Below are positions 25,822 to 50,605 of a stretch of 64,000 nucleotides of DNA, piece by piece; the first letter of the stretch is position 1; every line of letters begins with the position of its first letter. This DNA comes from Chrysiogenia bacterium (GTDB lineage Bacteria; JAGRBM01). The notes under the pieces were generated by a model, which saw only the letters and a list, made by a program, of their open reading frames with translations, ran no database searches and was not told where the DNA came from. The stretch is taken from NCBI GenBank assembly GCA_020434085.1, contig JAGRBM010000286.1:1246-65245 (forward strand). The letters run 5' to 3'. Position numbers and translations under genes: made by a program.

Positions 25822-25878
25822 ACTTCGGTGCGCCGGTTGGGCGATGGCCAGCGGAAAACAAATGCGCGAAAGGGACAA

Positions 25879-28564: not shown

Positions 28565-30115
28565 CTATTCGAAGTGGTAATGGCTCAACGGAAAATGCCT
28601 GCTTCGCCAGAGCATTTCGTAGCTCGACGCCGGTCGAAGGAATGGAGCGTCCCCATGACGATCGAAGTAGTAGCTGTTGGCGCCGCCGCAATTGTTGTTA
28701 AAAAACACCGTGTTCTTCTGACGCTTCAGCGTCATCTCAAAGTGCTTGTCGTGAGCGTCCTGCTTGATCTCGACACGGGTAGCGTTCTTCCTGCGCGCTT
28801 CCCGAATACAGCGAAGCGCGTGGGTCGTCTGGGCTTCCACCATCGCAAACCAGGATGACCCCGAAAAGGAATATGGGCCCAGAATCAGAAAGTAGTTGGG
28901 AAATCCCGGGACGGAAGTCCCCTCGTATGCCTGGTAGCGATTCTCAGCCCAGAATCCGCCCAAATTCATGCCGCTGCGTCCGGTCACATCGTAGGAAGGC
29001 AAATTTCCCTTTTCGAACGTCCTGTATCCGGTTGCCGCAATCAGAACATCGATCGCTCGCTCCGTCCCGTCGGCCGTAACAATCCCATTCTTGGTGATCC
29101 TTTTGATCGGCGTGGTTATGAGCCCCACGTTTTCACGCCCAAACGTGCGGAAATAGTCGTTGGAGAAAGACGGCCGCTTGCACCCGAAGCCGTAATGTGG
29201 AATCAGCTTCGCCCACAAGTCCGGACGATTGGGAAGCTGCCGCTTGATATTCCGAATGCCGGCGACTTCGGCCCGTTTGACGATACCCGGCATCTGCCTG
29301 TTGTACACGACGCCAGTGACCATCACGAGCTCGGTTCCCAGGTCCGTGGCGATTCGAAGTCCCCGCTGAATCATCGGAACACGACGGAAAAGCAGTTTTA
29401 TCCAGTTCGGAATCTCCCTGTCGGGTTTAGGAAGTACCCAGATTGGAGTGCGCTGATAGACATCCAGATGCTGCACCTTCGGGGCAATTTCCGGCAATAA
29501 TTGGACCGCAGTAGCCCCCGTGCCGATCACCGCTACCCGTTTCCCCTCCAACTTGAAACTGTGGTCCCATTTCGCCGTATGAATCAGCTTGCCCTCGAAA
29601 GAGTCGATGCCTTCAATGTCGGGCAGCTTGGGGTGGATTAATCCCCCGGTGGCTGAGATAATGTAGCGTGCGGTAAGCTCTTCCCCATCGTTTACGCGAA
29701 CCCGCCACAAGTTACATGCTTCATCGAAAGTTGCCGACTCCACACTGGTGCTGAACCGCATCTTCTCACGAACGCCGTATTTGCGGGCACAATGCTGGGC
29801 ATAGGCTTGCAGCTCCCGGCCCGGTGCAAACACACGAGACCAGTTGGGGTTGGGTTCAAAGGAGTAGGAATACGTAAACGAGGTGATATCGACGGCGATC
29901 CCGGGATAAGAATTGTCCCGCCATGTACCTCCAAGATCACCAGCACGCTCGAGAATGATGTAAGGACCGATGCCTGCCTTGTTCAGCTTAATTCCGGCGC
30001 CGATGCCAGAAAAGCCCGAGCCGATTATGATCACTTCATAATCAGGCCGGGGTGACGGCGATATCGAGACGTCATTCCGGCCATTGGACCCTACCGATGC
30101 GGACGCAAATCCCAT
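28565..30115 (-). CDS. Type I Baeyer-Villiger monooxygenase (516 aa)
   Basis: VIIIGSGFSGIG Rossmann fold, GGTWRDNSYPG, BVMO fingerprint FEGKLIHTAKWD. Confidence 0.85.
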   Translation of the reverse strand: MGFASASVGSNGRNDVSISPSPRPDYEVIIIGSGFSGIGAGIKLNKAGIGPYIILERAGDLGGTWRDNSYPGIAVDITSFTYSYSFEPNPNWSRVFAPGRELQAYAQHCARKYGVREKMRFSTSVESATFDEACNLWRVRVNDGEELTARYIISATGGLIHPKLPDIEGIDSFEGKLIHTAKWDHSFKLEGKRVAVIGTGATAVQLLPEIAPKVQHLDVYQRTPIWVLPKPDREIPNWIKLLFRRVPMIQRGLRIATDLGTELVMVTGVVYNRQMPGIVKRAEVAGIRNIKRQLPNRPDLWAKLIPHYGFGCKRPSFSNDYFRTFGRENVGLITTPIKRITKNGIVTADGTERAIDVLIAATGYRTFEKGNLPSYDVTGRSGMNLGGFWAENRYQAYEGTSVPGFPNYFLILGPYSFSGSSWFAMVEAQTTHALRCIREARRKNATRVEIKQDAHDKHFEMTLKRQKNTVFFNNNCGGANSYYFDRHGDAPFLRPASSYEMLWRSRHFPLSHYHFE

Positions 30116-30163: not shown

Positions 30164-30607
30164 CTACTTTTTCTTCGGATCCCGAATCAGCAAAGTACCT
30201 TGCGCCGCACAAACCAACCGCCCCTCATTGGAAACCTCGCCCCTTACCACTGCTGTCGTCTTTGTCATCGCGATGACTTCCGCGCTGCCATCGAGAGTCC
30301 CCGTCTTCACCGGCGCAAGATAATTCAATTTGAATTCAGTCGTCGCGGCCCACTGGCCGGGTGCCATCAGCGGATAGAGTACGACTCCAAGAATATGATC
30401 CATGTAACCAGCGAGTACGCCACCATGCATGTTTCCAATAGGCGTTAGCAGCTCCTTCCGCACTGGAAGCACGGCCTTGAGCGTACCGGGGCCGAGTTCC
30501 GTCACTTCGCATCCAAGAAATTTTGGCAGCCCGGTCATGGCGTTATTGGCCGCCATAATCCCCTTGGCTATTTGTGCGTTGAATTTCTCTGAAAAGTCTG
30601 CCTTCAC
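30164..30607 (-). CDS. PaaI-type hot-dog thioesterase
   Basis: 147 aa; NMHGGVLAGYMDHILG motif typical of PaaI/4HBT thioesterases. Confidence 0.8.
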   Translation of the reverse strand: MKADFSEKFNAQIAKGIMAANNAMTGLPKFLGCEVTELGPGTLKAVLPVRKELLTPIGNMHGGVLAGYMDHILGVVLYPLMAPGQWAATTEFKLNYLAPVKTGTLDGSAEVIAMTKTTAVVRGEVSNEGRLVCAAQGTLLIRDPKKK

Positions 30608-31500
30608 TTGTACCCTCTTTGCTTTTTGTTCGCAGCTGCCCAGCGCAGAAAATTCATAAACACCTTCTGTCCCCGCAACCCCCGACGAAAGACTCCGTAG
30701 TCCATCGCATGAGGTGCCTTGGAAGGCACGGACTTAACGCGGTCCCAGTAGATGCGAATCCGCTCAGGCTGAAACATCTCCGCCTGCATATGGCGCGTAG
30801 CGCGCGCAATTGCCCAGAGACCAAGTGGCGCGAGCGGCGCGACGATTGCCAGTTCCATCAAGTCGGAAATGCCAAACTTAAGGTCGGCTTTTTCCGATTT
30901 CTTGCCCTTGCGGTCAAGAAGCCAGTAGTCCATCGCTAGATGGTGGGATTCGTCGACGTCAATTCGTCGAAAGACTTCATCCTGAAGTGAGTCCTTGACC
31001 TTCTCCTTCAACAGCGGGATCAGGAGGCCGTCGAGCCCGATCTCGAAGAGAACAATCTGCGACGCCGTCACTTCATGTAAGAATCGGCTTTGAGATTGCC
31101 AAATATGTCGAATCGCCCGAAAATTGAGCCGCGTCAACAGCGGCATATCCTGCCAACTGACGCCGAGCCGCTTGGCCATGGCTATCTCGGATCGCGCGTG
31201 GCGCATTTCGTCGACGTAAAAATATTCATAAATCTGCTTCGCGCGAGAATCCCCGACATACCGCGCACAAAGCCGAAATATTTCAGCAGCCTGATATTCC
31301 AGGCCGGCCGTGAACACCAACATCAGACCCAGTTCTTTGCGCTCCCGAGACGACAGGTCGTCCGCCCCTTCGAGCGGCCGATCCCAGTCAAACTGATGCA
31401 CGGACCATTGCGTTTCGCGCGTGATGCGGAGCATTCTGTCCAAGTCGACGACATCTCTGCTACCATTTCCCTTGCTCTCGACTACTGATACTGAACTCAT
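30604..31500 (-). CDS. Ferritin-like diiron-carboxylate protein, paralog 3 (298 aa; group A)
   Basis: TQWSVHQFDW N-terminal motif; YVDEMRHARSE and DVDESHHLAMDYWLL diiron motifs; 4-nt overlap with the downstream thioesterase. Confidence 0.7.
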   Translation of the reverse strand: MSSVSVVESKGNGSRDVVDLDRMLRITRETQWSVHQFDWDRPLEGADDLSSRERKELGLMLVFTAGLEYQAAEIFRLCARYVGDSRAKQIYEYFYVDEMRHARSEIAMAKRLGVSWQDMPLLTRLNFRAIRHIWQSQSRFLHEVTASQIVLFEIGLDGLLIPLLKEKVKDSLQDEVFRRIDVDESHHLAMDYWLLDRKGKKSEKADLKFGISDLMELAIVAPLAPLGLWAIARATRHMQAEMFQPERIRIYWDRVKSVPSKAPHAMDYGVFRRGLRGQKVFMNFLRWAAANKKQRGYK

Positions 31501-31540: not shown

Positions 31541-32911
31541 TTAACCAGACGATTTTGGATAGAAAAAGCCGGCGTCCAGCCAAAACGGCTTCTTCAGAAC
31601 CGCTTTCTGATGCACGAATGTATCGAAAGTTCGGCGGCCGTGGTAGCTGCCCATCCCGCTGGGACCCACCCCGCCAAAGGGGAGAGACTGATTGCCGGCA
31701 TGCATCACGGTGTGATTGATGCACATCCCGCCGGACGATGTAGTCTTGACGGCGCGACGCTGCAGGTGCTGATCGCGAGTAAACAAGTAGCATGCAAGCG
31801 GTTTCGGCCTACCGCGCACGAATGCAAGTGCTTCATCCATGCTGTCCACGCTCAACACGGGCAGCACTGGACCGAAAATTTCCTCGCTCATGACCGGGCT
31901 TTGCGGCGTCACATTTCGGATCACGGTCGGCGCAATATAGAGATCGTCTCTGTCGCTTTCGCCCCCGACGACCAACTCGCCGTCATTGAGGAACCGTGAC
32001 ACACGCTCGAAATGACGTTCGTTGACGATTCGCGCATAGCGTTTGCTTCTTTGTGGATCGGAGCCGTAAAAATCGCGGATCGTCGCTTTCAGACATTCGA
32101 GCAACTCAGATTCGACTTTCTGATGGACAAGCGCATAGTCCGGCGCAATGCAGGTTTGCCCCGCATTCATGAATTTGCCGAGTGCAATGCGTCGCGCTGT
32201 GACATCCAAATCAGCTGTTGTATCCACGATGCAAGGACTTTTCCCTCCAAGCTCCAAAGTGACCGGCGTCAAATTTTCGGAGGCGGCATTCATCACAACA
32301 CGTCCGATCGTGCCATTTCCGGTATAGAAAATATGATCGAATCGCTGTGCAAGAAGCGTCTGGGTCTCTTCCGGACCGCCCTCGACAATCCGTATGCAAT
32401 CGGAATCGATGTAATCACCAAGCCTGTTTGCAAGCAGATCCGAAGTATGCGGCGCAATTTCCGACGGTTTCACAACCGCACAGTTCCCGGCGGCAATCGC
32501 TCCGGCCAGTGGAATCAACGTGAGTTGGACCGGATAGTTCCAGGCTCCAATTATCAGGACAACGCCAAGCGGATCCTTATGGATATAACTCGCCGCCGGC
32601 TGCAGCATCAGCGGCGAGGGAACTTTTTGCGGCCTCAGGTAACGCTTTAAATTGAACTTGAGGCTCGCAATTTCCATTCCCACGGAAAGTACGTCGGCTG
32701 CCATTGCTTCCTGCGCAGGCTTGCCAAGATCGGCAGACAGGGCACGGAGTATAGCCGTCCGTTGCTCGTAGCAAAACTTCAACAATCCCGTAAGTTGCCG
32801 TTGACGCCAGCGAAGCGGTTGCGCATGCCCTGCGTCGAAGTGCCTTCGAAGCTCTTCAACCACCCTTGCGATTCGATGCCTTTCAGCATCCTTGAGCATA
32901 GAACTCCCCAT
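31541..32911 (-). CDS. Aldehyde dehydrogenase (class 3 / fatty aldehyde dehydrogenase-like)
   Basis: ELGGKSP Glu motif and catalytic Cys motif FMNAGQTCIAPDY. Confidence 0.85.
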   Translation of the reverse strand: MGSSMLKDAERHRIARVVEELRRHFDAGHAQPLRWRQRQLTGLLKFCYEQRTAILRALSADLGKPAQEAMAADVLSVGMEIASLKFNLKRYLRPQKVPSPLMLQPAASYIHKDPLGVVLIIGAWNYPVQLTLIPLAGAIAAGNCAVVKPSEIAPHTSDLLANRLGDYIDSDCIRIVEGGPEETQTLLAQRFDHIFYTGNGTIGRVVMNAASENLTPVTLELGGKSPCIVDTTADLDVTARRIALGKFMNAGQTCIAPDYALVHQKVESELLECLKATIRDFYGSDPQRSKRYARIVNERHFERVSRFLNDGELVVGGESDRDDLYIAPTVIRNVTPQSPVMSEEIFGPVLPVLSVDSMDEALAFVRGRPKPLACYLFTRDQHLQRRAVKTTSSGGMCINHTVMHAGNQSLPFGGVGPSGMGSYHGRRTFDTFVHQKAVLKKPFWLDAGFFYPKSSG

Positions 32912-34150: not shown

Positions 34151-34951
34151 CTACATCATGTCCATTCCCATTCCGCACGTGACGCCGCCGTCCACTACAA
34201 GAGTCGTTCCCGTAACGAAATCAGCCAGGGGACTTGCCAGGAACACACAGGCCCTTGCGATGTCGTCAGGAACGCCGATTCTCTTCAACGGAGTGCGCTT
34301 CAGTAACGGTTTTCGAATCATGTCGGGAATCTCTTTTAGCCCCATTCTGAGCATCGGCGTATTGACGGCACCCGGACAGACCGCATTCACCCGAATTCCA
34401 TGCTGGCCAAGCTCCATTGCAAGCGCTTTTGTAAAGCCGACGACCCCGTGCTTGGACGAACAATATGCTGTGAGCAACGGCGATCCGATCAGCCCTTCAA
34501 CCGAAGAGATGCTGACAATCGCACCGCCTCGTTTTTTCAGCAAAGGGACCGCGGATCTGGAGCAGAAAAATATGCCGTTGAGGTTGGGACCGATCACTTC
34601 GTGCCATTGCTCGTCGGTTTGAAACTCGGCCAGGTTGCCTTTACCCACACCGGCGCAGTTTATGAGGGCGTCGAGCCGCCCGAATTCCTTTTCAATCGCC
34701 TTGGCACTCTGCATTGCTTGTTTCGAATCAGCGGTATTCGAGACTTCGATGATCACCTTCCGTCCGAACTGCGCCCGGATCAAATCTTTCGTTTCCTGCA
34801 GGCCTTCTTCATTCAGGTCGGTACCGTAAATGTCGGCACCGTGTGCGGCAAAACGCAGTGCAACACCGCGCCCAATTCCTGACGCTGCTCCCGTTACCCA
34901 GGCGATTTTGTCCGAGAAATCCGTTAGTCCGGTATCCATTACATCTGCCAA
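34151..34951 (-). CDS. Short-chain dehydrogenase/reductase (SDR)
   Basis: TGAASGIGRG cofactor motif; catalytic YCSSK; 266 aa. Confidence 0.9.
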   Translation of the reverse strand: MADVMDTGLTDFSDKIAWVTGAASGIGRGVALRFAAHGADIYGTDLNEEGLQETKDLIRAQFGRKVIIEVSNTADSKQAMQSAKAIEKEFGRLDALINCAGVGKGNLAEFQTDEQWHEVIGPNLNGIFFCSRSAVPLLKKRGGAIVSISSVEGLIGSPLLTAYCSSKHGVVGFTKALAMELGQHGIRVNAVCPGAVNTPMLRMGLKEIPDMIRKPLLKRTPLKRIGVPDDIARACVFLASPLADFVTGTTLVVDGGVTCGMGMDMM

Positions 34952-35013: not shown

Positions 35014-36015
35014 TCAGCTTGTACGCCCTGTAGCCAAAAACAGCGCGGCTTTAAAAAGGCCGGGGCGTTTCTCAAAGAAATCGACAGCGGATTTCATGAA
35101 GTCCACGGACACTCGAAACGATTTGACTTCCATGGAATGTGGAGCTTTAGCATCGACGCTGAGCAGACGACCCCAGTAGGCTACGAACTCATCACCACCC
35201 ATCGGGGCTTCACGTACGCTCCATGCAAATGAGACGAGCCCCATCGCCGCGAAGCCGAACGAGAGCGGCCGAAACGGATAGGAGTATTTCTTGCCATTTC
35301 GTCTTCGCTTAGCCTTGAGGCCGTGCTTCGCTGCTTGCCCCTTCTCATCCAGTAACCAGTAATCCATGGCTATATGACGTGCTTCGTCACGATCGATGAG
35401 CTTGAAAACCTCCATCAAGAGCGGGTCATTGCTCATCTTTTTCAATGTCGGGAGTAGAATTGTATCGAGAGCGAGTTCGGCGATGGGGATGCCCGAGGCT
35501 CCAAATTCGTGGAGCAGCCTGCTCACTGGAGTTCTTCCTGCGCGGCGGATATCCTGTGAAAACTGCTTGAACATCGCACGAACCGGAAAGGGCAAATCAC
35601 GCCACGTAACTCCCAACCGCTTGGCGAGCTCGACCTCGGAATCCGCATGTCGCTGCTCATCCAAGGCAATCAACTGAAAAATGGTTTTTGCGGTCTTGTC
35701 ATTAGAGTGTCTGGCATGGTTCATGAACGCATCAACTCCGAGCCGCTCAAAGCCCGCGGTCATCAGGAGCATTTTCCCTAGCAGTTTCCTCTGTTTCCGA
35801 GTCTTTGCAATGTCATCCGCAATCGGCGAGTGCCAGTCAAAGTCGTGAACCGACCACTGGTTGCGCATGGCCACCTCGAGGAGGGTTTCAAGATTGACGG
35901 ACTTCGAGCGCCTCACGCCGAGGCCATCGACGTCAGAAAGTTGCGTGGCCAATCCAGCCGCGCTTTCCGCATTCAACACATGATTCTCTGAATTTTCTGG
36001 CGTACTTCTAGCCAT
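35014..36015 (-). CDS. Ferritin-like diiron-carboxylate protein, paralog 4 (334 aa; group A)
   Basis: NQWSVHDFDW; ALDEQRHADSE; DRDEARHIAMDYWLL; start taken at the Met at 36015 (the longer ORF reaches 36099). Confidence 0.7.
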   Translation of the reverse strand: MARSTPENSENHVLNAESAAGLATQLSDVDGLGVRRSKSVNLETLLEVAMRNQWSVHDFDWHSPIADDIAKTRKQRKLLGKMLLMTAGFERLGVDAFMNHARHSNDKTAKTIFQLIALDEQRHADSEVELAKRLGVTWRDLPFPVRAMFKQFSQDIRRAGRTPVSRLLHEFGASGIPIAELALDTILLPTLKKMSNDPLLMEVFKLIDRDEARHIAMDYWLLDEKGQAAKHGLKAKRRRNGKKYSYPFRPLSFGFAAMGLVSFAWSVREAPMGGDEFVAYWGRLLSVDAKAPHSMEVKSFRVSVDFMKSAVDFFEKRPGLFKAALFLATGRTS

Positions 36016-36100
36016 GGTCGGATCGATACCTCGCGTGACCAGAGCCCTCCCGCTGGGCCAAGTATATCGGTTGGCTGCGGGAGCAGCGGAGATCAACATG

Positions 36101-36126
36101 TGTAATATAGCATTTGCTATATTACA
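36101..36126. promoter_or_regulatory. Perfect 12-bp inverted repeat TGTAATATAGCA-tt-TGCTATATTACA (candidate operator)
   Basis: Read directly in the 270-bp divergent intergenic region between diiron paralog 4 and the ACAD operon. Confidence 0.5.
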
Positions 36127-36258: not shown

Positions 36259-36274
36259 ATTGCTCTAGAGCAAT
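36259..36274. promoter_or_regulatory. Perfect 16-bp palindrome ATTGCTCTAGAGCAAT (candidate operator or RBS-proximal regulatory site)
   Basis: Read directly; ends 10 nt before the ATG at 36285 and abuts the RBS AGGGGG. Confidence 0.5.
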
Positions 36275-36284: not shown

Positions 36285-37397
36285 ATGAACTTTGACTTTT
36301 CGCAAGACCAGAAGCTACTTCAGATGTCTGCTCAGGGCTTCCTCAGAGACCATGCGAGCTTGGCAGGGGTCAGGAAAATCCTGGATACAGATGCGGACTG
36401 GGATGCGACCCTCTGGACTCGGATGGCTGAACAGGGCTGGCAGGGCACCGCAATACCCGAAGAGTTCGGGGGGGCGGGTTTGGGTTATCTGGAACTGGCT
36501 CTCCTTTCCGAAGAGCTGGGAGCCTCTTTGGCACCTGTGCCGTTCTCGTCGTCAGTCTATTTCGTTACCGAAGCGGTCTTGCACTTCGGCACCGATGAGC
36601 AGAAGCGCAAGTACCTTCCAAAGCTTGCCACAGGCGAAACAATCGGCGCCTTGGCCTGGGCGGAAGGCCCAGGCATGCCAGGAGTGTCAGGACCGCTGAA
36701 AACATGCTTCGATGGAAACTCCCTCAGCGGCACCAAACTGCCGGTACTCGATGGCCAGGTTGCGAACCTGGCAGTCGTTGTGACATCGGAAAACGACGCC
36801 CTCAGCTTGGTCCTCGTAGATCTGAATTCCGATGGGGTCCAGCGCTCTCGGCTCGACTCCATGGATCCGACGCGATCTCAATCGAGCATTAGTTTTAATG
36901 GCGCCCCCGGCGAGCGCCTTGGTTCCTCCGGTGACGGGAGTCGAATACTTGATTGGCTCCTCGACCGGGCGGCTGTCCTCGTCGCATTTGAACAGCTTGG
37001 CGGGGCGAATCGAGCGCACAAAATGTCGCTCGAATATGCGAAGGAGCGATACGCGTTTGGCAGACAGATCGGCTCTTTCCAGGCCATCAAGCACAAAATC
37101 GTCGACATGTTGATGAGCGTGGATCTGGCGCGCTCCAACTGTCTCTACGCTGCATGGGCGCTACAGAACAATACTGATCTTCCCGTTGCTGCCGCGGCAG
37201 CGCGGGTTGCAGCAACCGAAGCATTCGAGTTCTGCTCCAAGGAAAACATTCAGGTTCACGGAGGTATCGGTTTTACCTGGGAGGCCGATGCTCACTTGTT
37301 TTTCAAAAGATCCAAGCTGCTGACGCTCTGGCTCGGAAATGCGGATCTCTGGCGTGACCGCCTGATGGCCAAACTCGACGACAAGCACGCGGCCTGA
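36285..37397 (+). CDS. Acyl-CoA dehydrogenase family protein (370 aa)
   Basis: ACAD N-terminal/middle/C-terminal domain architecture; IQVHGGIGFTWE C-terminal motif. Confidence 0.85.
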   Translation: MNFDFSQDQKLLQMSAQGFLRDHASLAGVRKILDTDADWDATLWTRMAEQGWQGTAIPEEFGGAGLGYLELALLSEELGASLAPVPFSSSVYFVTEAVLHFGTDEQKRKYLPKLATGETIGALAWAEGPGMPGVSGPLKTCFDGNSLSGTKLPVLDGQVANLAVVVTSENDALSLVLVDLNSDGVQRSRLDSMDPTRSQSSISFNGAPGERLGSSGDGSRILDWLLDRAAVLVAFEQLGGANRAHKMSLEYAKERYAFGRQIGSFQAIKHKIVDMLMSVDLARSNCLYAAWALQNNTDLPVAAAAARVAATEAFEFCSKENIQVHGGIGFTWEADAHLFFKRSKLLTLWLGNADLWRDRLMAKLDDKHAA

Positions 37398-37452
37398 CAC
37401 CTGGAACCCAATCGACTGAGCCGCCGCTTGCGGCGGGAAGGGAACTTCTACA

Positions 37453-38700
37453 ATGGATTTCAACGATACCAAGCAGGAAAGCGAATTTCGGAATGAAGCA
37501 CGAGCGTGGCTCAACGCCAATGCCAAGAAACGAGAAGACTCCGAAGACTTCTTCAGCATGTTTTCCGAGCGTGACGATTCCAATATGGTCGAAGCCGCCA
37601 AGGCATGGCAGGCCAAGAAAGTGGATGCGGGATGGGCGGGCATCACCTGGCCAAAGAGCTTTGGCGGCAGAGGCGGTTCGCCGATGCAGTCCGTCATCTG
37701 GGGTCAAGAAGAGTCAAAATTCAATGTCCCGCCCAATATCTTTGCGATCGGCATCGGCATGGCGGGCCCGACCATCATGGCCCATGGGACCAAGGAGCAA
37801 AAAGAGCAGCTTCTTCCGCCCATGCTTCGGGGCGACGAGATCTGGTGTCAGCTGTTCAGTGAGCCGGGTGCCGGCTCCGATCTCGCCGGGCTGAAGACTC
37901 GCGCCGTCAAAGACGGTGATGTCTGGGTCATCAACGGCCAAAAAGTCTGGACCTCGGGGGCGCACTACTCGGACTGGGGAATTCTCGTAGCACGGACCGA
38001 CTTCGACGCACCCAAGCACAAGGGCATTACGTACTTTGTCGTCAATATGAAAAGCCCGGGGATCGAGGTCAGGCCCATCAAGCAGATATCGGGTGGAGCG
38101 AACTTCAACGAGGTGTTCTTCACGGACGTTCGAATTCCCGACTCCAACCGCCTGGGCGGCGTGAACAAGGGTTGGCCGGTGGCTCTGACCACATTGATGA
38201 ACGAACGTTTCACAATTGGTGGCGGCGGCATGATGGGCGGCGGATTTGGGTTTGAAGACCTGGTCCAGCTAGCCAAGAAATTCGGTCAAAATGGCACCGC
38301 TGCGTACGGCGACATCGGTGTGCGCCGACGCCTTGCCGACATATACATTCGCTCCAAGGGACTTCAATACACCGGATATCGCGCCATCACGGCGCTCTCC
38401 AAGGGTGGGATACCCGGCCCCGAAGCCTCCGGCGGAAAGCTCATTTTTGGACAACTTTTGCAGGACATGGCGGCGCTGGCGCTCGAAATTCAGGGCCCCG
38501 TCGGCAGCCTGACCGAGGCATCGATCACGGCGCAGAATGCCGTGTGGCAAGAAGCCTTCATGTGGGCGCCCGGTATTCGCATTGCCGGCGGCACCGATGA
38601 AGTTCTTCGCAACATCATCGGCGAACGCGTACTCGGACTTCCAGGTGACGTTCGTGTTGATAAGGATGTGCCGTTCAGCAAAATCCCTTCGGGAAACTAG
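37453..38700 (+). CDS. Acyl-CoA dehydrogenase family protein (415 aa)
   Basis: ACAD architecture; GQKVWTSGA motif; adjacent to a second ACAD, a possible heteromeric pair. Confidence 0.85.
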   Translation: MDFNDTKQESEFRNEARAWLNANAKKREDSEDFFSMFSERDDSNMVEAAKAWQAKKVDAGWAGITWPKSFGGRGGSPMQSVIWGQEESKFNVPPNIFAIGIGMAGPTIMAHGTKEQKEQLLPPMLRGDEIWCQLFSEPGAGSDLAGLKTRAVKDGDVWVINGQKVWTSGAHYSDWGILVARTDFDAPKHKGITYFVVNMKSPGIEVRPIKQISGGANFNEVFFTDVRIPDSNRLGGVNKGWPVALTTLMNERFTIGGGGMMGGGFGFEDLVQLAKKFGQNGTAAYGDIGVRRRLADIYIRSKGLQYTGYRAITALSKGGIPGPEASGGKLIFGQLLQDMAALALEIQGPVGSLTEASITAQNAVWQEAFMWAPGIRIAGGTDEVLRNIIGERVLGLPGDVRVDKDVPFSKIPSGN

Positions 38701-38785
38701 CGCTGGAACTGCGCGCGTGTGCAGCCGCACAAAAGTTCCGGTCCGGTGATCGACCGCGAAGGGGAACAATCGAAGGGGAACAATA

Positions 38786-40348
38786 ATGAATGAGAAACTT
38801 CCGCTCGGATTCTGGCAGTGGGCACAGAAGGCGCCGGATCGGCATGGACTCGTCTCCCCTGATGGTAAGGAATATTCGGCGGGCGAGTTGCTTCAATTGA
38901 TCAACCAGCTATCGCATGGCCTGCGGTCCTTGGGGCTTCAAAAGGGCGACGGGATCGCAATGATGTTGGGAAACGGTACGGAATGGGTCGCATTGGCCCT
39001 CGCAGCATCACAGATCGGACTTTATTATACGCCGATTAATTATCACCTCACCGGGGAGGAAGCCGCTTACATCGTCGACGATTGCGAAGCGAAAGTCCTG
39101 ATAGTCGACGCCGCCTACTCCGATGCCGCACGTGTCATCGCGCAGCAGGCATCACTCCCTCAGGACCGGCGGTTTTCCGTGGGTTCTGTTGAGGGCTACC
39201 GGCCTTTTTCAGAAATTCACCAGGGCCAGCCAACGGACCTGCCTGAGAATCGCCTGGCAGGCCAGAATATGAACTACACGTCTGGAACGACTGGAAAACC
39301 CAAAGGTGTCCGACGACCGCTCATGCCCGCTACCCCTGAGCAAGCGGCACAGTTGGGAACACTGCTGGCCGGTCTCTTCAACATACCAGCTGGTTCCTAC
39401 GACGGGGTACATCTATGTGCCGGACCGCTCTACCACACCGCGCCCGGCGCCTTTAGCCTGATGGGTCTGCATCTTGGCCAGTCACTGGTGCTGATGCATC
39501 GATGGGATCCCGAGAAAACACTTGAACTGATCGATAAATTTCGCGTAACAACCACCCATCTGGTCCCGACCATGTTTCACAGAATGCTCGCACTGCCCGA
39601 TGAGGTCAAATCCAGATACAAGTTCGATTCCCTCAGGAGCGTCATTCATGCTGCTGCACCCTGTCCTCCGGATATCAAGCACCGAATGATCGAATGGTGG
39701 GGCCCGGTAATCTATGAATACTACGGCGCCACTGAAGGCGGCGGAACGTCGGTAAAACCCAAGGAATGGCTTCAGCATCCGGGTACCGTGGGGCGCGCAT
39801 GGCCGGGTTCCACGATCAAGGTTCTTGACGATGAAGGGAATGAGTGCCCACCGAACACTCAGGGAACGGTCTATATGGGGTCACCCATCGGATCCTTCGA
39901 GTACTACAAGGACCCGAAGAAGACGAACGAGAATCGCCGGAAAGACCTTTTCACTGTGGGAGATATTGGTTACCTGACCGAAGACGGCTTTCTCTTCCTG
40001 TGCGACAGAAAGTCAGACATGATCATCGCCGGCGGTGTGAACATCTACCCGGCAGAAATTGAAGCCGTCTTTCTTTCCCATCCCAAAGTCGCAGATGTGG
40101 CTGTTTTTGGAGTCCCCGACAACGATATGGGAGAGAGTGTCTACGCAGTGATCCAGCTCAGTGAAGGATCAGAGGATCTCGATGCCTTGAAGAATGAGCT
40201 CAATAAGTTTGCCGAGGCAAAGTTGGCCAAATTCAAGTTGCCGCGCGGGATGGAGTTCCGGAAAGAACTCCCTCGTGAGCCCAGTGGCAAACTTTTCAAA
40301 CGAAAACTTCGCGACGAGTTCTGGAAACATTCGGGTCGGCACATCTAG
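38786..40348 (+). CDS. Acyl-CoA synthetase (AMP-binding, fatty-acid-CoA ligase)
   Basis: YTSGTTGKPKGV AMP-binding motif; 520 aa. Confidence 0.9.
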   Translation: MNEKLPLGFWQWAQKAPDRHGLVSPDGKEYSAGELLQLINQLSHGLRSLGLQKGDGIAMMLGNGTEWVALALAASQIGLYYTPINYHLTGEEAAYIVDDCEAKVLIVDAAYSDAARVIAQQASLPQDRRFSVGSVEGYRPFSEIHQGQPTDLPENRLAGQNMNYTSGTTGKPKGVRRPLMPATPEQAAQLGTLLAGLFNIPAGSYDGVHLCAGPLYHTAPGAFSLMGLHLGQSLVLMHRWDPEKTLELIDKFRVTTTHLVPTMFHRMLALPDEVKSRYKFDSLRSVIHAAAPCPPDIKHRMIEWWGPVIYEYYGATEGGGTSVKPKEWLQHPGTVGRAWPGSTIKVLDDEGNECPPNTQGTVYMGSPIGSFEYYKDPKKTNENRRKDLFTVGDIGYLTEDGFLFLCDRKSDMIIAGGVNIYPAEIEAVFLSHPKVADVAVFGVPDNDMGESVYAVIQLSEGSEDLDALKNELNKFAEAKLAKFKLPRGMEFRKELPREPSGKLFKRKLRDEFWKHSGRHI

Positions 40349-40371
40349 GCGACTTACGTGGGGATTATTTC

Positions 40372-41568
40372 GTGGCAAAGCACAGAACATCAATCCGCGG
40401 GCAGGCAGCCATCGTCGGCGCGCATGATATCGTCTCACCTACCGGGAAGCTCGATGGAACCGAGAGACAGCTGGAAGTTCGGGCGATTCGCGCCGCGCTG
40501 GACGATGCGGGTCTGAAGCTGAGTGACGTGGATGGGTTGCTCTGCACCGGCATGATGATGCCTTCCATGGATCTCGCAGAACATCTCGGGATCCAACCTC
40601 GGTACACCGATACCACGATGACCGGAGGTTCGAGTTTTGAGGTAATGGTCGAGCACGCCGCTCTGGCCATCACCTGCGGGCTTTGCGAGGTTGCCATCAT
40701 CGTCTATGCAGCAACCCCGCGTGCCAAGGGCGGCGGGCGAAAGTACGCCGCGATGATGCAGGCAATGATGGAACCGGGAAACCCACCGCCCATGGCGGAG
40801 TGGGAATTGCCATACGGCCTGCTGAGTCCGTCCGGAGCGTACGCGCTTGCCGCAAGCAGGCACATGCATGTTTATGGCACGACTCCGGAACAACTTGCTC
40901 AGATCGCCGTTTCGACACGGCAATGGGCGAGCATGAACAAGAATGCAAGATATCAGGAGCCGATCACCATTGATGACGTCCTGGCATCCCCCTACGTAGC
41001 AGAACCTTTACATCGCCTTGATTGTTGCCTTGTTACAGACGGTGCCGGTGCAATTGTCATGACTTCGGCCGAGCGTGCGAAGGATTTGAGGAAACCGCCG
41101 GTGTACGTTCTCGGTGCGGCAACCCACCATGACCACGCCATGATGATCGCACAGATGCCCGATCTGACACGGACCGCCGGAGCTGTCTCCGGGCCGCGAG
41201 CGTTCGAGATGGCCGGGATCACCCCCAGGGACGTCGATGTTTTCGAGGGATATGATTCCTTTACGATTACCTTGCTTTTGCACCTCGAAGATCTGGGATT
41301 TTGCCCGAAGGGCGAAGGCGGTCGGTTTGTCGAAGGAAATCGACTCGGCCCCGGAGGGTCACTACCCACCAATACCAACGGCGGAGGACTCTCATACACC
41401 CATCCAGGAATGTATGGAATGTTCCTGCTTGTCGAGGCGACAAGACAGCTGCGTGGCGAATGCAACGACCGCCAGGTCTCTGATGCTGAAATTGCCGTAG
41501 CTCACGGATGTGGCGGCATCCTTTCATCAACGGGGACGATTGTTCTTGGAACGGAGGGCACGCTTTGA
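40372..41568 (+). CDS. SCP-x / nsLTP-type thiolase (thiolase-like protein)
   Basis: 398 aa; thiolase fold with a C-terminal HGCGG-like region; paired with the downstream DUF35 protein, as in SCP-x/Ltp systems. Confidence 0.75.
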   Translation: MAKHRTSIRGQAAIVGAHDIVSPTGKLDGTERQLEVRAIRAALDDAGLKLSDVDGLLCTGMMMPSMDLAEHLGIQPRYTDTTMTGGSSFEVMVEHAALAITCGLCEVAIIVYAATPRAKGGGRKYAAMMQAMMEPGNPPPMAEWELPYGLLSPSGAYALAASRHMHVYGTTPEQLAQIAVSTRQWASMNKNARYQEPITIDDVLASPYVAEPLHRLDCCLVTDGAGAIVMTSAERAKDLRKPPVYVLGAATHHDHAMMIAQMPDLTRTAGAVSGPRAFEMAGITPRDVDVFEGYDSFTITLLLHLEDLGFCPKGEGGRFVEGNRLGPGGSLPTNTNGGGLSYTHPGMYGMFLLVEATRQLRGECNDRQVSDAEIAVAHGCGGILSSTGTIVLGTEGTL

Positions 41569-41576
41569 GCGGACGA

Positions 41577-41978
41577 ATGTCAGTCGGGACGTCCGGGACG
41601 GGTACCCCCTTTTGGGATGCCACCCGGGAAAAGCGCCTTGTTTTGCAATGGTGCAAGGCTTGCGACCGCGCAATTTTCTACCCACGAGATTTCTGCCCGA
41701 ATTGCTTGGGGGAGGAACTGGTCTGGGAAGACGCGAAAGGCACCGGAGTTGTTTATGCCCTTAGCGTCATGCACAAGCCCGGCAATCCTCTAATGGCCCA
41801 GAGAGTTCCATATATCGTCGCGATCATCGAGCTTGCCGAGGGCGTACGTATGCTGTCGACAGTCGTGGGCGACGGACGGATCACTGCAAAGGTAGGCGAT
41901 AAGGTACGGGTTTCCTGGGAAGATCTCAATGATGGTCGCTATCTTCCGGTGTTCGAACTAATCGCTCGGACATCCTGA
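41577..41978 (+). CDS. DUF35 OB-fold / zinc-ribbon protein (thiolase partner)
   Basis: CKACDRAIFYPRDFCPNC zinc ribbon followed by an OB-fold; ATG at 41577, 9 nt after the thiolase stop. Confidence 0.7.
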   Translation: MSVGTSGTGTPFWDATREKRLVLQWCKACDRAIFYPRDFCPNCLGEELVWEDAKGTGVVYALSVMHKPGNPLMAQRVPYIVAIIELAEGVRMLSTVVGDGRITAKVGDKVRVSWEDLNDGRYLPVFELIARTS

Positions 41979-41992: not shown

Positions 41993-43411
41993 ATGCTTCA
42001 TAACCGTGTCATCCGCAGCGTTGTTTCCGTCCTGTTTTTCACCCGTATCCTGATGAGCTACGTCTGGTTCGGGATGGTTACTCAGAAGCGCATTCCCAGA
42101 GGCCAGGGCATGCGACGCAGGGCTTTGGAATCACTGCACGAGATCAATGCAAAGAGAATGTATGGCTATTTTGTTCGCCTGAAGGGCGTATATATCAAAA
42201 TCGGCCAATTCCTCTCCACCCAGGCCGCTTTCTTGCCTCCGGCCTATCTCATTGAAATGGTCAAGATGCAGGATCAAAACCCGATCGCTCATGAGTCGGC
42301 AATTCGCACGCGAATTGTGGAGGAGTTCGGTGCACAACCAGAAGAGATCTTCGCCCGATTTGACGCCGCACCTTTGGCTTGCGCCTCGATCGGGCAGGTT
42401 CACCGTGTTCGACTCAAGGATGGGCGCCAGGCGGTTCTAAAGGTGAAATATCCCGGCATCGACCGGTTCTTTTTTGCAGACCAGAAAGTCGTAAAGCTGA
42501 TGCTGCCCTGGTTTATTCGGATTCTTGAATACGGCCTTTATCAGGAGTCCACCGGCATCAATTACAACGCGCTGATCGACGAATTCGTCAAATACATCAG
42601 CAAAGAGTTGGATTATCGCAACGAAGTACTCAATCAGGAGAGGATGTACGAACAGTTGGAGGGAATGCGCAACAGGCGTATGGTGGCCATTCCACGGCTC
42701 TACAAGGAGTATTGCCGTGACTCCATCATCTGCATGGAGTTCATTGATGCCCTGAAAATAGTGCCGTGGTATACGAACCCCAAAGTCCCCAATCAGAAGA
42801 AAGACTGGATTTTTCGGTGCATGGTCGAGTGCCTGTTCTATACCATTGCGTACCACGGCTTCTTTCAGGCTGACACGCATCCTGGCAATTTTATGGTGCT
42901 GGATGACGATCCGGAGAATCCCGATGTCCCAGCGACACTGGTGATGCTGGATTTCGGGTGCACCAAGGATTTCCCGGAAGGATTCCGCCTCGGGGTTGTC
43001 GAAGTCGTCAATGGATATCTGACGAAGATGCCCGAGAAGATCACTGCCGCGCTGTGGAAACAGGGATTTCGCACCAAGTTACAGACACTCGAATCCCTCG
43101 AATTGTGGGTAACCCAAGGCGTCGGAGTTACAGACGAGATTCTCGGATTCTTTCGGGACGGCACCGATATCGTCGAACACTTGCGCCACAACCTCGCCGA
43201 AATGGCTTCTGAATTTCTTGAACTTCACGACGCTCACCGGATCGCTGCAGTCCCGGAGCATTACGCATTGCTCGCACGCGTGATCGCTACGGCACCGGTT
43301 CCGCTTGAGGAATACATGCCGCGGGTGGATTTCCTGCCGATTGCGCTCACATATGTCAGCGTACTTGCAAGCAAGGCACGCGAGGACTCGCCTCGAGCGG
43401 CCGCATCATAG
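41993..43411 (+). CDS. ABC1/UbiB (Coq8-like) atypical protein kinase
   Basis: IKIGQFLST, ASIGQVHRVRL (Lys region), HADTHPGNFMV catalytic motif. Confidence 0.8.
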   Translation: MLHNRVIRSVVSVLFFTRILMSYVWFGMVTQKRIPRGQGMRRRALESLHEINAKRMYGYFVRLKGVYIKIGQFLSTQAAFLPPAYLIEMVKMQDQNPIAHESAIRTRIVEEFGAQPEEIFARFDAAPLACASIGQVHRVRLKDGRQAVLKVKYPGIDRFFFADQKVVKLMLPWFIRILEYGLYQESTGINYNALIDEFVKYISKELDYRNEVLNQERMYEQLEGMRNRRMVAIPRLYKEYCRDSIICMEFIDALKIVPWYTNPKVPNQKKDWIFRCMVECLFYTIAYHGFFQADTHPGNFMVLDDDPENPDVPATLVMLDFGCTKDFPEGFRLGVVEVVNGYLTKMPEKITAALWKQGFRTKLQTLESLELWVTQGVGVTDEILGFFRDGTDIVEHLRHNLAEMASEFLELHDAHRIAAVPEHYALLARVIATAPVPLEEYMPRVDFLPIALTYVSVLASKAREDSPRAAAS

Positions 43412-43486: not shown

Positions 43487-44602
43487 ATGAGTACAAAGAA
43501 GACCTCGAAAAAGAGTAATAACACCGAGAAAAGACGAGCTTCTACCAAAACGGGCAAACCCGTCGGTTCGCAGCGGGTTCGTGGCAAAACGCTGGTGACC
43601 GGCGCCGCCGGTTTTATCGGCTCTCATGTCGTACGTGAGTTGCTCAAAGAGGGCAGAGAAGTCCGCGCCTTGGTAATGCCCGGAGAGAATCGAAAAAACC
43701 TGGAAGCACTGGATGTCGAAATCGTAGAGGGAAATCTTCTAGAGCCCTCCACTCTCAAACCGGCTGTAACGGGCTGCTCGCGCATTCACCATTTGGCCGC
43801 CATTTATGCGATCTGGCTCCCGCGACGAGAGAAGATGTTCGAAGTCAACTGCATCGGCTCGTTGAACCTTCTCTGGGAAGCCTATCATCAGTCGGTCGAA
43901 AAACTCGTCTTTACATCGTCGATCGCGGCAGTAGGCATCAAGCCCGGCAAGACGCCCGCAAAGGAGGACGACCGATTTAACCAGGTGGCTGCGGCAAACG
44001 ATTACGTCAACTCCAAATGGCTTTCTGAAGAGGAGGCGAAGACCTTTGTTCGCCAGGGAATGGACATTTCGTTCTGCAACCCCGGATTTCCCTTTGGCGC
44101 AAGAGACGTCGCGCCGACCCCGACCGGCCAGATATTGCTCGATATCGTGAATGGGAAGAATCGATTCTACTTTGACGCGGGATTTTCCGCAGTGGACGTT
44201 GAAGATGTGGCACGGGGTCACGTACTGGCTGAAAAACACGGAAAGCCTGGTGAACGCTACATCCTTTCAAATCACAATCTGACGTTCAAGGAATTTTACG
44301 ATTTGATTTCCGACGTGAGTGGTGTTCGGCACAAGGCGAGGAAACTCCCGATCCAGTTCGCCGCTCCCCTTGGTGATTGGCTTGAGCGCCGGGCCGATCA
44401 AACAGGCAAACGGCCTGTGCTGACGGGAAGCGGTATTCGCTATGCGAACAACTACCTGTACTTCGATAACTCGAAAGCGCGCAACGAACTGGGCCTGACA
44501 TTCACGCCGATTGAGGACAGCATCAGACGCGCAATTTCATGGTTTGCGGAGAACCGCTACATCACGAACCAGGAGTTTCTTCGGCGCTACCGGAATTGCT
44601 GA
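43487..44602 (+). CDS. NAD-dependent epimerase/dehydratase family (extended SDR)
   Basis: TLVTGAAGFIGSHVV Rossmann motif; 371 aa. Confidence 0.8.
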   Translation: MSTKKTSKKSNNTEKRRASTKTGKPVGSQRVRGKTLVTGAAGFIGSHVVRELLKEGREVRALVMPGENRKNLEALDVEIVEGNLLEPSTLKPAVTGCSRIHHLAAIYAIWLPRREKMFEVNCIGSLNLLWEAYHQSVEKLVFTSSIAAVGIKPGKTPAKEDDRFNQVAAANDYVNSKWLSEEEAKTFVRQGMDISFCNPGFPFGARDVAPTPTGQILLDIVNGKNRFYFDAGFSAVDVEDVARGHVLAEKHGKPGERYILSNHNLTFKEFYDLISDVSGVRHKARKLPIQFAAPLGDWLERRADQTGKRPVLTGSGIRYANNYLYFDNSKARNELGLTFTPIEDSIRRAISWFAENRYITNQEFLRRYRNC

Positions 44603-49049: not shown

Positions 49050-50531
49050 TCATTCCTGCGGCCATGCGCGCTGATAGGCGTATTGGCCGAAATTCGACGC
49101 TGGATCGCGGAGGATCACTTGCTGGAAGGCCTCGTTGGCCTGTTTTTTTTCCCTTTTGAGATCAAAGGCCTCTCCGAGATAAAAGTAGGTATTGACCCGG
49201 TATATCTCGTTGAATCCCTTGAATGGAAGCCCCAGTTGGGCTTCGGTGTGTGTATCGACGATTTCCAGAAGGTCTCTCAGCGCGCCGATTCCCTCGTCTA
49301 CCTGATTGAGAGGCGCCGGAAGAATCGTGTAGGCGCGTCCTTTCATGAGGAGGATTTCAAGACGGTCCTTGAGGCGCCGGGGCGTAAGTCGCAGGCTTTC
49401 CTGGAACAACTGGAGCGATTTATTTAGCCACTGGGCCGGTGAGATGACCCCACCCACCCGCGCGGCCTGCATTAAGTTGGCTATCGCGGCGTAGGCTGTG
49501 GTTCTCGCATCGTGGGGCGCGACTTTGTGCGCTTTGGCGGCCATCTGAACCGCCTCGTCCGTCCGATTAAGAAACGTATCGGCGACGGTTTTGAGTAGCA
49601 TCGCGTCGGAGTCATATTTGTCGTTTTTGAGTATCCGGGTGGCCTGTTCAGCACCCTCTTCGTAGCGCCCGATCGCGAGGTAAGCCTCGGCAAGTCGGAG
49701 CTGCAGATCACGTCTTTGCTTCGCGTCGCCGTCGCGCAGCTGGGTTTCGATCTCTTCAATCTGGGAGGGAATAGCGTGCTTTTCCAAAAATGCTTCACTG
49801 GGGATATAGATCTTCTTTCGCAGTTTTTCGACAGACAGCGGGCCTTCTTCATATGCGCGCTCGAAATGCAGCCGAAGAGCTCGTGTCTTCGCGGCTTCCA
49901 AAAATCGGTTAATGAGTGAATCGATTTCCCCCAACCGTCCCACTACTTCCCGGAAACTGGCGTCCCCGTCAATGGTGTGAATGAGGGCCTTGGATTCCTT
50001 GGTAACGACGGCTTCGATCGGGTTGAGAAGGTCAACGAAGAATTCGACGGGCAGTCCCTTGCTGTGAGCGGTCGAAACGATCCACGCGATTTTCCGTTCT
50101 TCGCCGGAGAGCGGCCCTTCGATGGCGCTGATGAGCCCGGCCTCCGCAAGGTATTTCTGCAAGTCCTCTGGTATTTCAACTTCGGCCGCGGGCTCCGTCG
50201 CCAGAACACCAACGCTGGGCGGAAGAAACCCTTTCCCCTCGGTTGCCCGCTCGAACATGTCAGCCACCAGGCTGAGTTCGAGCGCCTGGGCATCGTAGTT
50301 GCCCTGCTTGAAAAGCTGAGCGATGAAGGCCAGTGGGAGTTTCTTTTCCTTTTGTAGCTTGCGGACGAGTTCGAGAAGCTTGAGATGGTTTTCGTCGTAA
50401 AGGGCCAGTTTTTCGCGTACTTTGCGGGGCGGGGGCAGGATCCCCGCCCGCAAATAGTAGTGGATTGTTTTGCCGGCCACGCCCGCGGCATCTGCCAATT
50501 CTGAAAGTTTAAATTGTTTCTTTTTCGCCAT
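49050..50531 (-). CDS. MerR-family HTH transcriptional regulator fused to a long helical/TPR-like domain
   Basis: N-terminal FKLSELADAAGVAGKTIHYYLRAGIL MerR HTH; 493 aa, with alpha-helical repeats in the rest. Confidence 0.7.
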   Translation of the reverse strand: MAKKKQFKLSELADAAGVAGKTIHYYLRAGILPPPRKVREKLALYDENHLKLLELVRKLQKEKKLPLAFIAQLFKQGNYDAQALELSLVADMFERATEGKGFLPPSVGVLATEPAAEVEIPEDLQKYLAEAGLISAIEGPLSGEERKIAWIVSTAHSKGLPVEFFVDLLNPIEAVVTKESKALIHTIDGDASFREVVGRLGEIDSLINRFLEAAKTRALRLHFERAYEEGPLSVEKLRKKIYIPSEAFLEKHAIPSQIEEIETQLRDGDAKQRRDLQLRLAEAYLAIGRYEEGAEQATRILKNDKYDSDAMLLKTVADTFLNRTDEAVQMAAKAHKVAPHDARTTAYAAIANLMQAARVGGVISPAQWLNKSLQLFQESLRLTPRRLKDRLEILLMKGRAYTILPAPLNQVDEGIGALRDLLEIVDTHTEAQLGLPFKGFNEIYRVNTYFYLGEAFDLKREKKQANEAFQQVILRDPASNFGQYAYQRAWPQE

Positions 50532-50605
50532 GGCCTCAAAAATACCACGAGTTCAAATAGTTATGATGCGCGCCCGGTCCCTTGCCCCGTGCAGTATAAT
50601 CCAGC

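Follow-up and report, generated by a model that had tools for sequence, protein, structure and literature searches.

Every characterised thiolase works via an acylated cysteine (PMC3406046). In the steroid aldolase CtSal, which shares the thiolase fold, that position is taken by a glycine and the enzyme is incapable of thiolysis; its base is Tyr302 of the motif YDCY and its acid is Cys304, and the C304S variant is inactive. The related aldolase TcLtp2 uses the tyrosine of YDHF as base and Tyr344 as acid (PMC12329534). A second described system is the heteromeric acyl-CoA dehydrogenase (ACAD), in which the alpha subunit binds the isoalloxazine ring and carries the catalytic glutamate and the substrate site, and the beta subunit touches the ADP-ribose, with two active sites per tetramer (PMC11153573; PMC8399759). 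Genes resembling both systems lie side by side in a 64-kb stretch of DNA from a Chrysiogenia bacterium (contig JAGRBM010000286.1; hereafter the window), where two ACADs, an acyl-CoA ligase, a thiolase-fold protein and a DUF35 protein are encoded at 36285-41978. The cluster is read here as a beta-oxidation-like module in which the carbon-carbon bond is cut aldolytically and not thiolytically, an interpretation to which we give a slightly better than even chance. The thiolase half matters more: its family, which is large and highly conserved, is named acetyl-CoA acetyltransferase or thiolase, yet lacks the nucleophile and appears to share the tyrosine base of the steroid aldolases.

Organization of the gene cluster

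The 66 open reading frames (ORFs) of the window were screened against Pfam and NCBIfam. The five genes are co-directional on the forward strand, and the ORF list places them exactly as the initial annotation had described, with ACADs of 370 and 415 residues, 55 nt apart, followed by the ligase, the thiolase-fold protein and the DUF35 protein. The first gene (36285-37397) encodes the predicted non-catalytic ACAD beta subunit (370 residues), which matches the N- and C-terminal ACAD domains of Pfam, and the second (37453-38700) the predicted catalytic, FAD-isoalloxazine-binding alpha subunit (415 residues), with all three ACAD domains. The third encodes an AMP-forming acyl-CoA ligase of 520 residues (38786-40348; AMP-binding and AMP-binding_C), the fourth the thiolase-fold protein without nucleophilic cysteine, a putative retro-aldolase of 398 residues (40372-41568; PF22691), and the fifth a free-standing DUF35 protein of 133 residues (41577-41978; zf-ChsH2 and OB_ChsH2_C, a zinc ribbon and an OB fold). 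An alternative start of the DUF35 gene at 41508 would give 156 residues. The start at 41577, 8 nt past the preceding stop codon, is the more probable one; the 133-residue form was also called on another contig (L003) and still contains both domains. The co-directional run continues through two further genes, described below, to 44602, and its intergenic gaps measure 55, 85, 23, 8, 14 and 75 nt.

Ten metagenome contigs from this organism carry the five genes as well, and the identical thiolase-fold protein is carried in an NCBI metagenome-assembled genome (MAG) as "thiolase [Chrysiogenetes bacterium]". A collection of 80 species-level loci was found with the thiolase-fold protein; among these, only L007 and L008 (a Bdellovibrionota MAG), both from related species, are fully syntenic with the window. 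Because the five genes recur on the 10 contigs and in both of these species, their arrangement is not due to chance. A scan of 34.8-46.2 kb for promoter and terminator consensus sequences gave counts equal to those of shuffled sequence and was therefore uninformative on the limits of the operon.

The thiolase-fold protein lacks the nucleophilic cysteine

In Pfam, the protein matches the SCP2-type C-terminal domain Thiolase_C_1 (PF22691) with 213 bits and Thiolase_N with 24.9 bits, the latter under the cut-off. In NCBIfam it passes the cut-off (421) of PRK06158, "acetyl-CoA acetyltransferase", with 507 bits. The closest solved relative is 4u4e_A, deposited as "Thiolase" (397 bits, 54% identity), followed by CtSal (9myr_A, 216 bits) and TcLtp2 (6ok1_A, 199 bits). 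True thiolases rank after these aldolases, with 157 bits for 7yvy, 134 bits for BbsB and 117 bits for the archaeal enzyme, and classical thiolases match with E-values of 1e-5 or worse. By Pfam and by this ranking, the protein does not cluster with classical FadA.

Active-site motifs were read from pairwise residue alignments and from a MAFFT alignment with 119 homologues. The position of the nucleophile, a cysteine in 7YVY, is occupied by Gly86; the glycine is found in 119/119 homologues and likewise in 4U4E, Sal and Ltp2. The HDCF/HDAF motif of thiolases is replaced by Y294-D-S296-F, the GHP histidine is retained as T-H344-P-G, and a cysteine pair that is common to Ltp2 is present as Cys218-Cys219; each of the three is invariant in all 119 sequences. 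In the archaeal-type thiolase 7YVY, the cysteine nucleophile goes together with HDAF, and BbsB also has HDAF in an alignment that covers the C-terminal part only. The exchange of the nucleophilic cysteine for glycine excludes thiolysis through an acyl-enzyme, and judged by these residues the window protein is not a thiolase. The missing cysteine also makes the acetyltransferase name of PRK06158 implausible. The initial annotation had called the protein an SCP-x thiolase with a DUF35 partner, of which the SCP2-type fold and the partnership stand and the thiolase activity does not.

From its active-site residues, the protein most likely cuts carbon-carbon bonds as a retro-aldolase. It shares with TcLtp2 (6OK1) and CtSal (9MYR) the SCP2-thiolase fold, the glycine in place of cysteine, the Tyr-Asp opening of the motif and a partner with C4 zinc ribbon and OB fold. 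It differs in having YDSF where Ltp2 has YDHF and Sal has YDCY, and in keeping the GHP histidine where Ltp2 has Tyr344 and Sal has Gln352. In the alignments, His344 falls on the Ltp2 acid Tyr344, and Ser296 falls on Cys304 of Sal. Tyr294 is likely the base and His344 the likely acid, which would make a third active-site arrangement beside those of Ltp2 and Sal. Because the identity to the two aldolases (36%) barely exceeds that to an archaeal-type thiolase (34%), the family appears from its sequences to be a clade of its own. Orthology with Ltp2 or Sal was rejected, the second catalytic residue being different and the fusion of DUF35 to a hydratase being absent.

The PRK06158/4U4E family is widespread in Acidimicrobiales, Gammaproteobacteria and the lineage of the window. 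The window protein and 4U4E belong to this same family and have identical GGSS, YDSF and THPG motifs; the PDB record of 4U4E describes no function, and the solved structure is already available to guide experiments. No characterised member of the YDSF clade came up in a search of the literature. Another thiolase-type pair, IpfDE of ibuprofen degraders, is called a thiolase in one paper, which gives no residues for comparison. Free-standing DUF35 proteins with an SCP2-type thiolase-fold enzyme are also known from the benzoylsuccinyl-CoA thiolase BbsAB (7PXP) and from the archaeal thiolase-HMG-CoA synthase-DUF35 complex (6ESQ); unlike the window protein, these enzymes are true thiolases, and they account for the 134 and 117 bits given above.

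If the family is aldolytic, the thiolysis step is mis-assigned in metabolic reconstructions of many environmental genomes, and the family offers new biocatalysts for making or breaking carbon-carbon bonds. A further-reaching and rather doubtful extension is that the PRK06158/4U4E family constitutes a third class of thiolase-fold carbon-carbon lyases, of the Tyr/His type, which, unlike Ltp2 and Sal, would have no tether to a hydratase and would work with oxygenases on a hydratase-independent route that shortens beta-branched or otherwise blocked acyl-CoAs. The oxygenases would be, just as tentatively, ferritin-like diiron proteins, P450s and Baeyer-Villiger monooxygenases that make or consume hydroxy or carbonyl substrates. 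If such a class exists, thousands of 'acetyl-CoA acetyltransferase' annotations are wrong.

The DUF35 partner and the neighbourhoods of the pair

The DUF35 protein has a canonical C-x2-C-x10-C-x2-C zinc ribbon, and among solved structures it is closest to the DUF35 domains that were crystallised with Ltp2 (6ok1_B, ChsH2) and with Sal (9myr_B, Shy). Whereas those domains are the tails of MaoC hydratases, the window protein is a separate polypeptide in a cluster without hydratase. Its gene lies directly 3' of the thiolase-fold gene in 77/80 loci, and the three exceptions are contig ends.

A ligase that is 38-59% identical to that of the window stands beside the thiolase-fold/DUF35 pair in 37/80 loci and an alpha-type ACAD in 28/80; a short-chain dehydrogenase/reductase (SDR) lies within 6 kb in 30/80 and a flavin monooxygenase accompanies the pair in 12/80. 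In many Acidimicrobiales the order is ACAD, thiolase-fold protein, DUF35 protein, ligase, SDR and an AurF-like diiron protein. The ACAD of these clusters is of the alpha type, with LMNER and without RxxFG, and appears to be an orphan alpha subunit. At L052 (8540-9928) and at the equivalent position in about 28 loci, the alpha-type ACAD has a Gly-rich insertion of about 50 residues and no beta gene nearby. At 27 diverse loci, 124 genes neighbouring the pair were sorted by Pfam family; this census gave AMP-binding (8), SDR (7), P450 (5), ACAD (5), THAP4-like haem-binding (5), FMO-like (3) and luciferase-like (3) proteins.

In the oil-associated gammaproteobacteria Candidatus Macondimonas (L009, L010, L013 and L017), the thiolase-fold protein of the pair is 73% identical to the window protein. 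There, the pair is located between genes for PmbA/TldD, a glutathione S-transferase, a pyridoxamine-phosphate oxidase and a ketoacyl synthase, with no ligase or ACAD.

The two acyl-CoA dehydrogenases resemble a heteromeric pair

The division of labour between the two ACADs was read from alignments of the alpha subunit with 136 cluster representatives and of the beta subunit with 120 homologues. The best solved relatives of the alpha subunit are themselves alpha chains, 4x28_A (ChsE4, 177 bits) and then 6wy9_A/6wy8_B (IpdE1), and those of the beta subunit are beta chains, 6wy8_A (Tcur3481, IpdE2) as the best match with 4x28_D (ChsE5) also matched. The two window proteins are 23% identical over 152 residues.

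In the alpha subunit, Glu251 of the motif LMNER aligns with Glu247 of ChsE4 and the corresponding glutamate of IpdE1 and is kept in 132/136 relatives; a glycine stands at the MCAD-type glutamate position. The flavin-site motifs SEPxAGSD and KxWTS are conserved, and RxxFG is not present. The beta subunit has Ala229 at the ChsE4-type base position (119/120 sequences) and Leu350 at the MCAD-type position, and no catalytic glutamate was found at either position in it or in any of its 120 homologues. Its flavin site is degenerate: Pro153 replaces the flavin-site tryptophan and AEGPGMPG replaces SEPxAGSD, KLPVLDG is present, and it matches no ACAD middle domain (PF02770). It does keep R255-x-A-F-G-R...Q266 in 120/120 sequences, together with HGGxGF. 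By mapping from published ACAD structures (PMC11153573), RxxFG...Q and HGGxGF of the beta subunit are assigned to contacts with the ADP part of the partner's FAD.

The known pairs ChsE4-ChsE5 (FadE26-FadE27, 4X28) and IpdE1-IpdE2 (6WY8/6WY9) have the same features, namely adjacent genes, a helix-G glutamate (LxxER) in one subunit, and a second subunit that has lost the glutamate and the flavin motifs and keeps RxxFG/Q/HGG. The window pair differs from them by an identity of 31-32%, by the gene order beta to alpha and by the lack of a steroid-catabolic context. A proline, Pro93, is found in the alpha subunit at the position of ChsE4 Pro89 and LCAD Pro132, as in 88/136 relatives. Proline at this position unwinds helix E and enlarges the pocket (PMC11153573), and Pro93 is thus a hint, not proof, of a bulky or branched substrate.

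Natural fusions gave a further line of evidence. The alpha subunit was scanned against 1.84 billion cluster representatives, and the best 150 (50%-cluster representatives) were inspected; 20 of these are beta-alpha fusions of 758-819 residues in which the alpha part is the C-terminal half. The N-terminal half of one fusion (P0243) is 44% identical to the beta subunit over 365 residues, and the order of the halves is that of the window genes. Homologues of the beta subunit at 53-59% identity are abundant, and a beta gene followed by an alpha gene of 414-415 codons was found in Zavarzinia, on a Myxococcaceae contig and in a deltaproteobacterial genome (L087-L089). Members of this beta-alpha family are spread widely over Proteobacteria and Myxococcota and have varied gene neighbours.

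At the level of sequence, the pair thus holds as a heteromeric type, with a residue pattern that is plain to see and an alpha2beta2 assembly and activity that would follow from it. The initial annotation had proposed a heteromeric enzyme resembling the steroid FadE pairs and had suggested checking one subunit for a loss of FAD-binding residues; the relatives, the one-subunit glutamate and flavin motifs and the fusions bear out the proposal, and the alignment shows a degenerate flavin site in beta and the flavin-site motifs in alpha. Enzymes of this type, first described for cholesterol catabolism, are widespread beyond steroid degraders and even occur as single chains. For annotation this means that a lone "ACAD" without catalytic glutamate is to be regarded as a subunit and not as a pseudo-enzyme.

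The best NCBIfam model of the alpha subunit is pimC_large, matched over its full length with 241 bits against an equivalog cut-off of 623.85, and the beta subunit matches pimD_small, also at full length, with 156 bits against 652.7. An assignment as PimCD (TIGR03204/TIGR03203) was rejected on these scores, which lie far under the cut-offs. The pimeloyl-CoA dehydrogenase cluster pimFABCDE resembles the window cluster in combining a ligase, a two-subunit ACAD and a thiolase-type gene. Hydratase or hydroxyacyl-CoA dehydrogenase genes of the pimE/pimF type are not present in the window cluster, however, and its thiolase-type gene encodes no cysteine nucleophile.

Ligase, HpnA-like reductase and substrate

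The best NCBIfam models of the ligase, PRK12406 and FadD4, were both matched under their cut-offs. Its best solved relatives, at about 200 bits, are the bile-acid-CoA ligase BaiB, FadD5 and FadD13. The last co-directional gene (43487-44602, forward strand) encodes an HpnA-like extended SDR of the 3-beta-HSD family, which is 83-91% identical in L007 and L008. It reaches 323.5 bits with the HpnA model TIGR03466 (cut-off 367.65) and 190 bits with SdmB, and its best solved relative is 3wj7_A, a 'putative oxidoreductase'. A search for the substrate by way of the ligase and this SDR gave sub-threshold or generic matches only. The steroid families KstD, KshAB, HsaA-D and ChsH were not among the Pfam and NCBIfam matches of the ORFs of the window.

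A steroid, isoprenoid or hopanoid substrate, as the initial annotation had supposed, finds no support, since neither steroid-ring genes nor a DUF35-fused MaoC lie in the 64 kb. Nor does the ACAD pair itself point to steroids. The same pair occurs in unrelated, non-steroid contexts (L087-L089), and in beta-proteobacteria the use of C8-C12 dicarboxylic acids specifically depends on PimCD-like paired ACADs (PMC12543098). Because such pairs serve dicarboxylates, steroids cannot be diagnosed from a paired ACAD. An acid that is branched, bulky or non-standard in some other way is the probable substrate.

Proposed reaction sequence

In the proposed sequence, the ligase, whose enzyme family is clear, would make the acyl-CoA. 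The two ACADs would form an alpha2beta2 enzyme that converts it to the 2-enoyl-CoA, the alpha subunit providing the substrate pocket, Glu251 as base and the flavin ring site, and the catalytically dead beta subunit supplying contacts across the subunit interface to the ADP part of the cofactor. The 3-hydroxyacyl-CoA would then arise through a hydratase whose gene lies elsewhere or through another step that inserts oxygen; this step is a gap, for which no gene in the 64 kb accounts. The thiolase-fold protein without cysteine, held by DUF35, would split the 3-hydroxyacyl-CoA by retro-aldol cleavage with Tyr294 as base and His344 as likely acid. To judge from the active-site residues, the products would be acetyl- or propionyl-CoA and an aldehyde or ketone. 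Speculatively, the divergently encoded aldehyde dehydrogenase (ALDH), SDR and oxygenases would process the carbonyl product.

Several observations weigh against this aldolytic module. Hydratase families (MaoC or crotonase) were matched by none of the 66 ORFs of the window and are not in the top 25 Pfam families of the neighbour census, and the DUF35 protein is not fused to a MaoC hydratase as in the Ltp2 (ChsH2) and Sal (Shy) systems. With no hydratase in the 64 kb, the step from enoyl-CoA to the aldolase substrate is unexplained by the window genes, and it would require either an unlinked hydratase or a different route. The identity of the thiolase-fold protein to the aldolases is hardly above that to a true archaeal-type thiolase. 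Its second catalytic residue matches neither aldolase, and Ser296 stands where the C304S exchange leaves Sal dead. Finally, a beta-type ACAD or beta-alpha pair adjoins the thiolase-fold pair in only 3/80 loci, which means that the two units may be functionally independent.

Such independence is the core of an unlikely but serious alternative, in which a PimCD-like ACAD and the ligase, acting on medium-chain or dicarboxylic acids, are merely adjacent to a thiolase-fold/DUF35 pair with a separate role. The full-length matches to pimC_large and pimD_small, the requirement for PimCD-like pairs in dicarboxylate use (PMC12543098), the beta-alpha pairs without thiolase-fold gene in L087-L089 and the thiolase-fold/DUF35 pair without any ACAD in Macondimonas agree with it, as does the rarity of co-location (3/80). 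The Pim scores are, however, far under the equivalog cut-offs (624 and 653), and the window genes are tightly spaced on one strand. In addition, alpha-type ACADs (28/80 loci) and ligases (37/80) are repeated neighbours of the pair in another phylum (Acidimicrobiales), which was counted in favour of a functional linkage.

It is improbable that the thiolase-fold/DUF35 pair is not a degradative lyase at all and serves instead in condensation (aldol addition), in decarboxylation or as a non-catalytic scaffold, perhaps in a lipid modification involving the HpnA-like SDR and a downstream acyltransferase. TbSLP, a relative that also lacks the cysteine, has only a weak malonyl-CoA decarboxylase activity (PMC12329534); DUF35 proteins act as scaffolds in biosynthesis, for example in the thiolase/HMG-CoA synthase and PhlABC complexes; and PlsC-like, ABC1 and Coq4-like genes are nearby with no linked hydratase. 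The usual neighbours of the pair (ligase, ACAD, SDR and oxygenases) are nevertheless catabolic in type, and that Tyr294, His344 and Cys218-Cys219 do not vary from phylum to phylum speaks for a catalytic role.

Equally improbable is a direct orthologue of the steroid aldolase systems, either igr-like (ChsE1-ChsE2/ChsH1-ChsH2/Ltp2) or Sal-like. The logic of a two-subunit ACAD, a thiolase-fold aldolase without cysteine and a DUF35 protein is the same, and the closest characterised relatives of the thiolase-fold and DUF35 proteins are Ltp2, Sal and their DUF35 domains. Against this, Ltp2 and Sal are only 36% identical to the window protein, the acids of both enzymes are missing (Tyr344 of Ltp2 being His and Cys304 of Sal being Ser), DUF35 is unfused to a MaoC hydratase, with no hydratase in the 64 kb, and the family is common in Acidimicrobiales and, among housekeeping genes, in Macondimonas.

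The thiolytic module for steroid, isoprenoid or hopanoid side chains of the initial annotation, with FadE-type ACADs and an SCP-x thiolase/DUF35 pair, is very improbable: the resemblance of the ACADs to ChsE4-ChsE5 and IpdE1-IpdE2, Pro93 at the pocket-widening position, BaiB as the ligase's best solved relative and the presence in the window of an HpnA/3-beta-HSD-like SDR, a P450 and an RND transporter with sterol-sensing domain speak for it, but the cysteine used by all characterised thiolases (PMC3406046) is missing in 119/119 homologues, neither KstD, Ksh, Hsa or other ring-degradation families nor a MaoC hydratase occur in the 64 kb, the SDR misses the HpnA cut-off and the same ACAD pair is found in non-steroid contexts (L087-L089).

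Divergent upstream genes and putative operator sites

Divergently from the ACAD genes, the reverse strand encodes a ferritin-like diiron protein (35014-36099; probable start Met29, about 333 residues), a classical FabG-like SDR (34151-34951; adh_short_C2, 220 bits) and an ALDH (31541-32911; PF00171, 285 bits), along with an MBL-fold hydrolase, a second diiron paralogue and a 4HBT thioesterase. In the L089 locus, an ALDH gene lies directly 3' of the beta-alpha pair and an MBL-fold gene also flanks it. The ALDH of the window is, speculatively, a candidate consumer of the aldehyde product.

The diiron protein at 35014-36099 gives weak AurF and Phenol_Hydrox matches, and its residues E118, E148xxH151, E208 and E239xxH242 are invariant. 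Comparison with PDB sequences gave marginal matches to MiaE and ADO only. In an AF2 model (pLDDT 75.7), the best folds by Foldseek were RNR-R2/R2lox with TM scores of 0.45-0.48, which corresponds to a generic ferritin fold. The AurF-like diiron gene that accompanies the thiolase-fold/DUF35 pair in 22/80 loci belongs to an unrelated subfamily.

Two palindromes that look like putative operator sites lie between the divergent diiron and ACAD beta genes. A perfect 12+2+12 palindrome at 36101-36126, TGTAATATAGCA-TT-TGCTATATTACA, had 0 matches in 100 shuffles; L007 and L008 show partial conservation of its core and of the adjoining AGTTGAAAATGA stretch. A 16-bp palindrome, ATTGCTCTAGAGCAAT, at 36259-36274 lies just 5' of the ribosome-binding site of the beta gene.

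Further genes of the window

The gene that starts 14 nt past the DUF35 gene (41993-43411, forward strand; PF03109) encodes an ABC1/UbiB-like atypical kinase. It is kept in L008 and is not found at the corresponding place in L007, and it is probably no obligatory part of the cluster. Two ABC1/UbiB-type kinase genes (41993-43411 and 51709-53781) and a Coq4-family gene (54694-55431) are interleaved with diiron genes. The set recalls accessory proteins of ubiquinone biosynthesis in a region that is otherwise catabolic-looking.

Altogether, the window encodes five ferritin-like diiron proteins, at 35014-36099 (reverse strand), 30604-31500 (reverse) and 53809-54684 (forward), and also at 50514-51647 (forward) and 24313-25590 (reverse). 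Three of the five are mutual paralogues with 37-40% identity and invariant E, ExxH, E and ExxH ligands, and belong to a family that yielded only 7 clusters in a search of 5.8 billion proteins. The other two are 30-34% identical to the AurF-like protein that accompanies the thiolase-fold/DUF35 pair in 22/80 loci, most of them from Acidimicrobiales.

Three flavin monooxygenases of the Baeyer-Villiger/FMO-like type are encoded at 19989-21821, 21825-23327 and 28565-30115. The same part of the window (19989-30115) also encodes a metal-dependent hydrolase (PF10118), and two of its large ORFs (24313-25590 and 26173-27522) fall into no family.

The G+C content is 0.60-0.66 at 1-18000, falls to 0.52-0.58 from about 18 kb and is 0.61 past 62 kb, and the third-position GC of codons mirrors the shifts at about 18 kb and at 62 kb. 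The whole catabolic region may be an acquired island of about 44 kb, or the contig a chimeric assembly.

At 55527-62112, a P450 gene is followed by genes for DUF1302, LolA-like/DUF1329 and MMPL/RND transporter proteins, the last with a sterol-sensing-domain match, and the stretch also encodes a TetR regulator. These genes probably constitute an uptake or export system for hydrophobic compounds.

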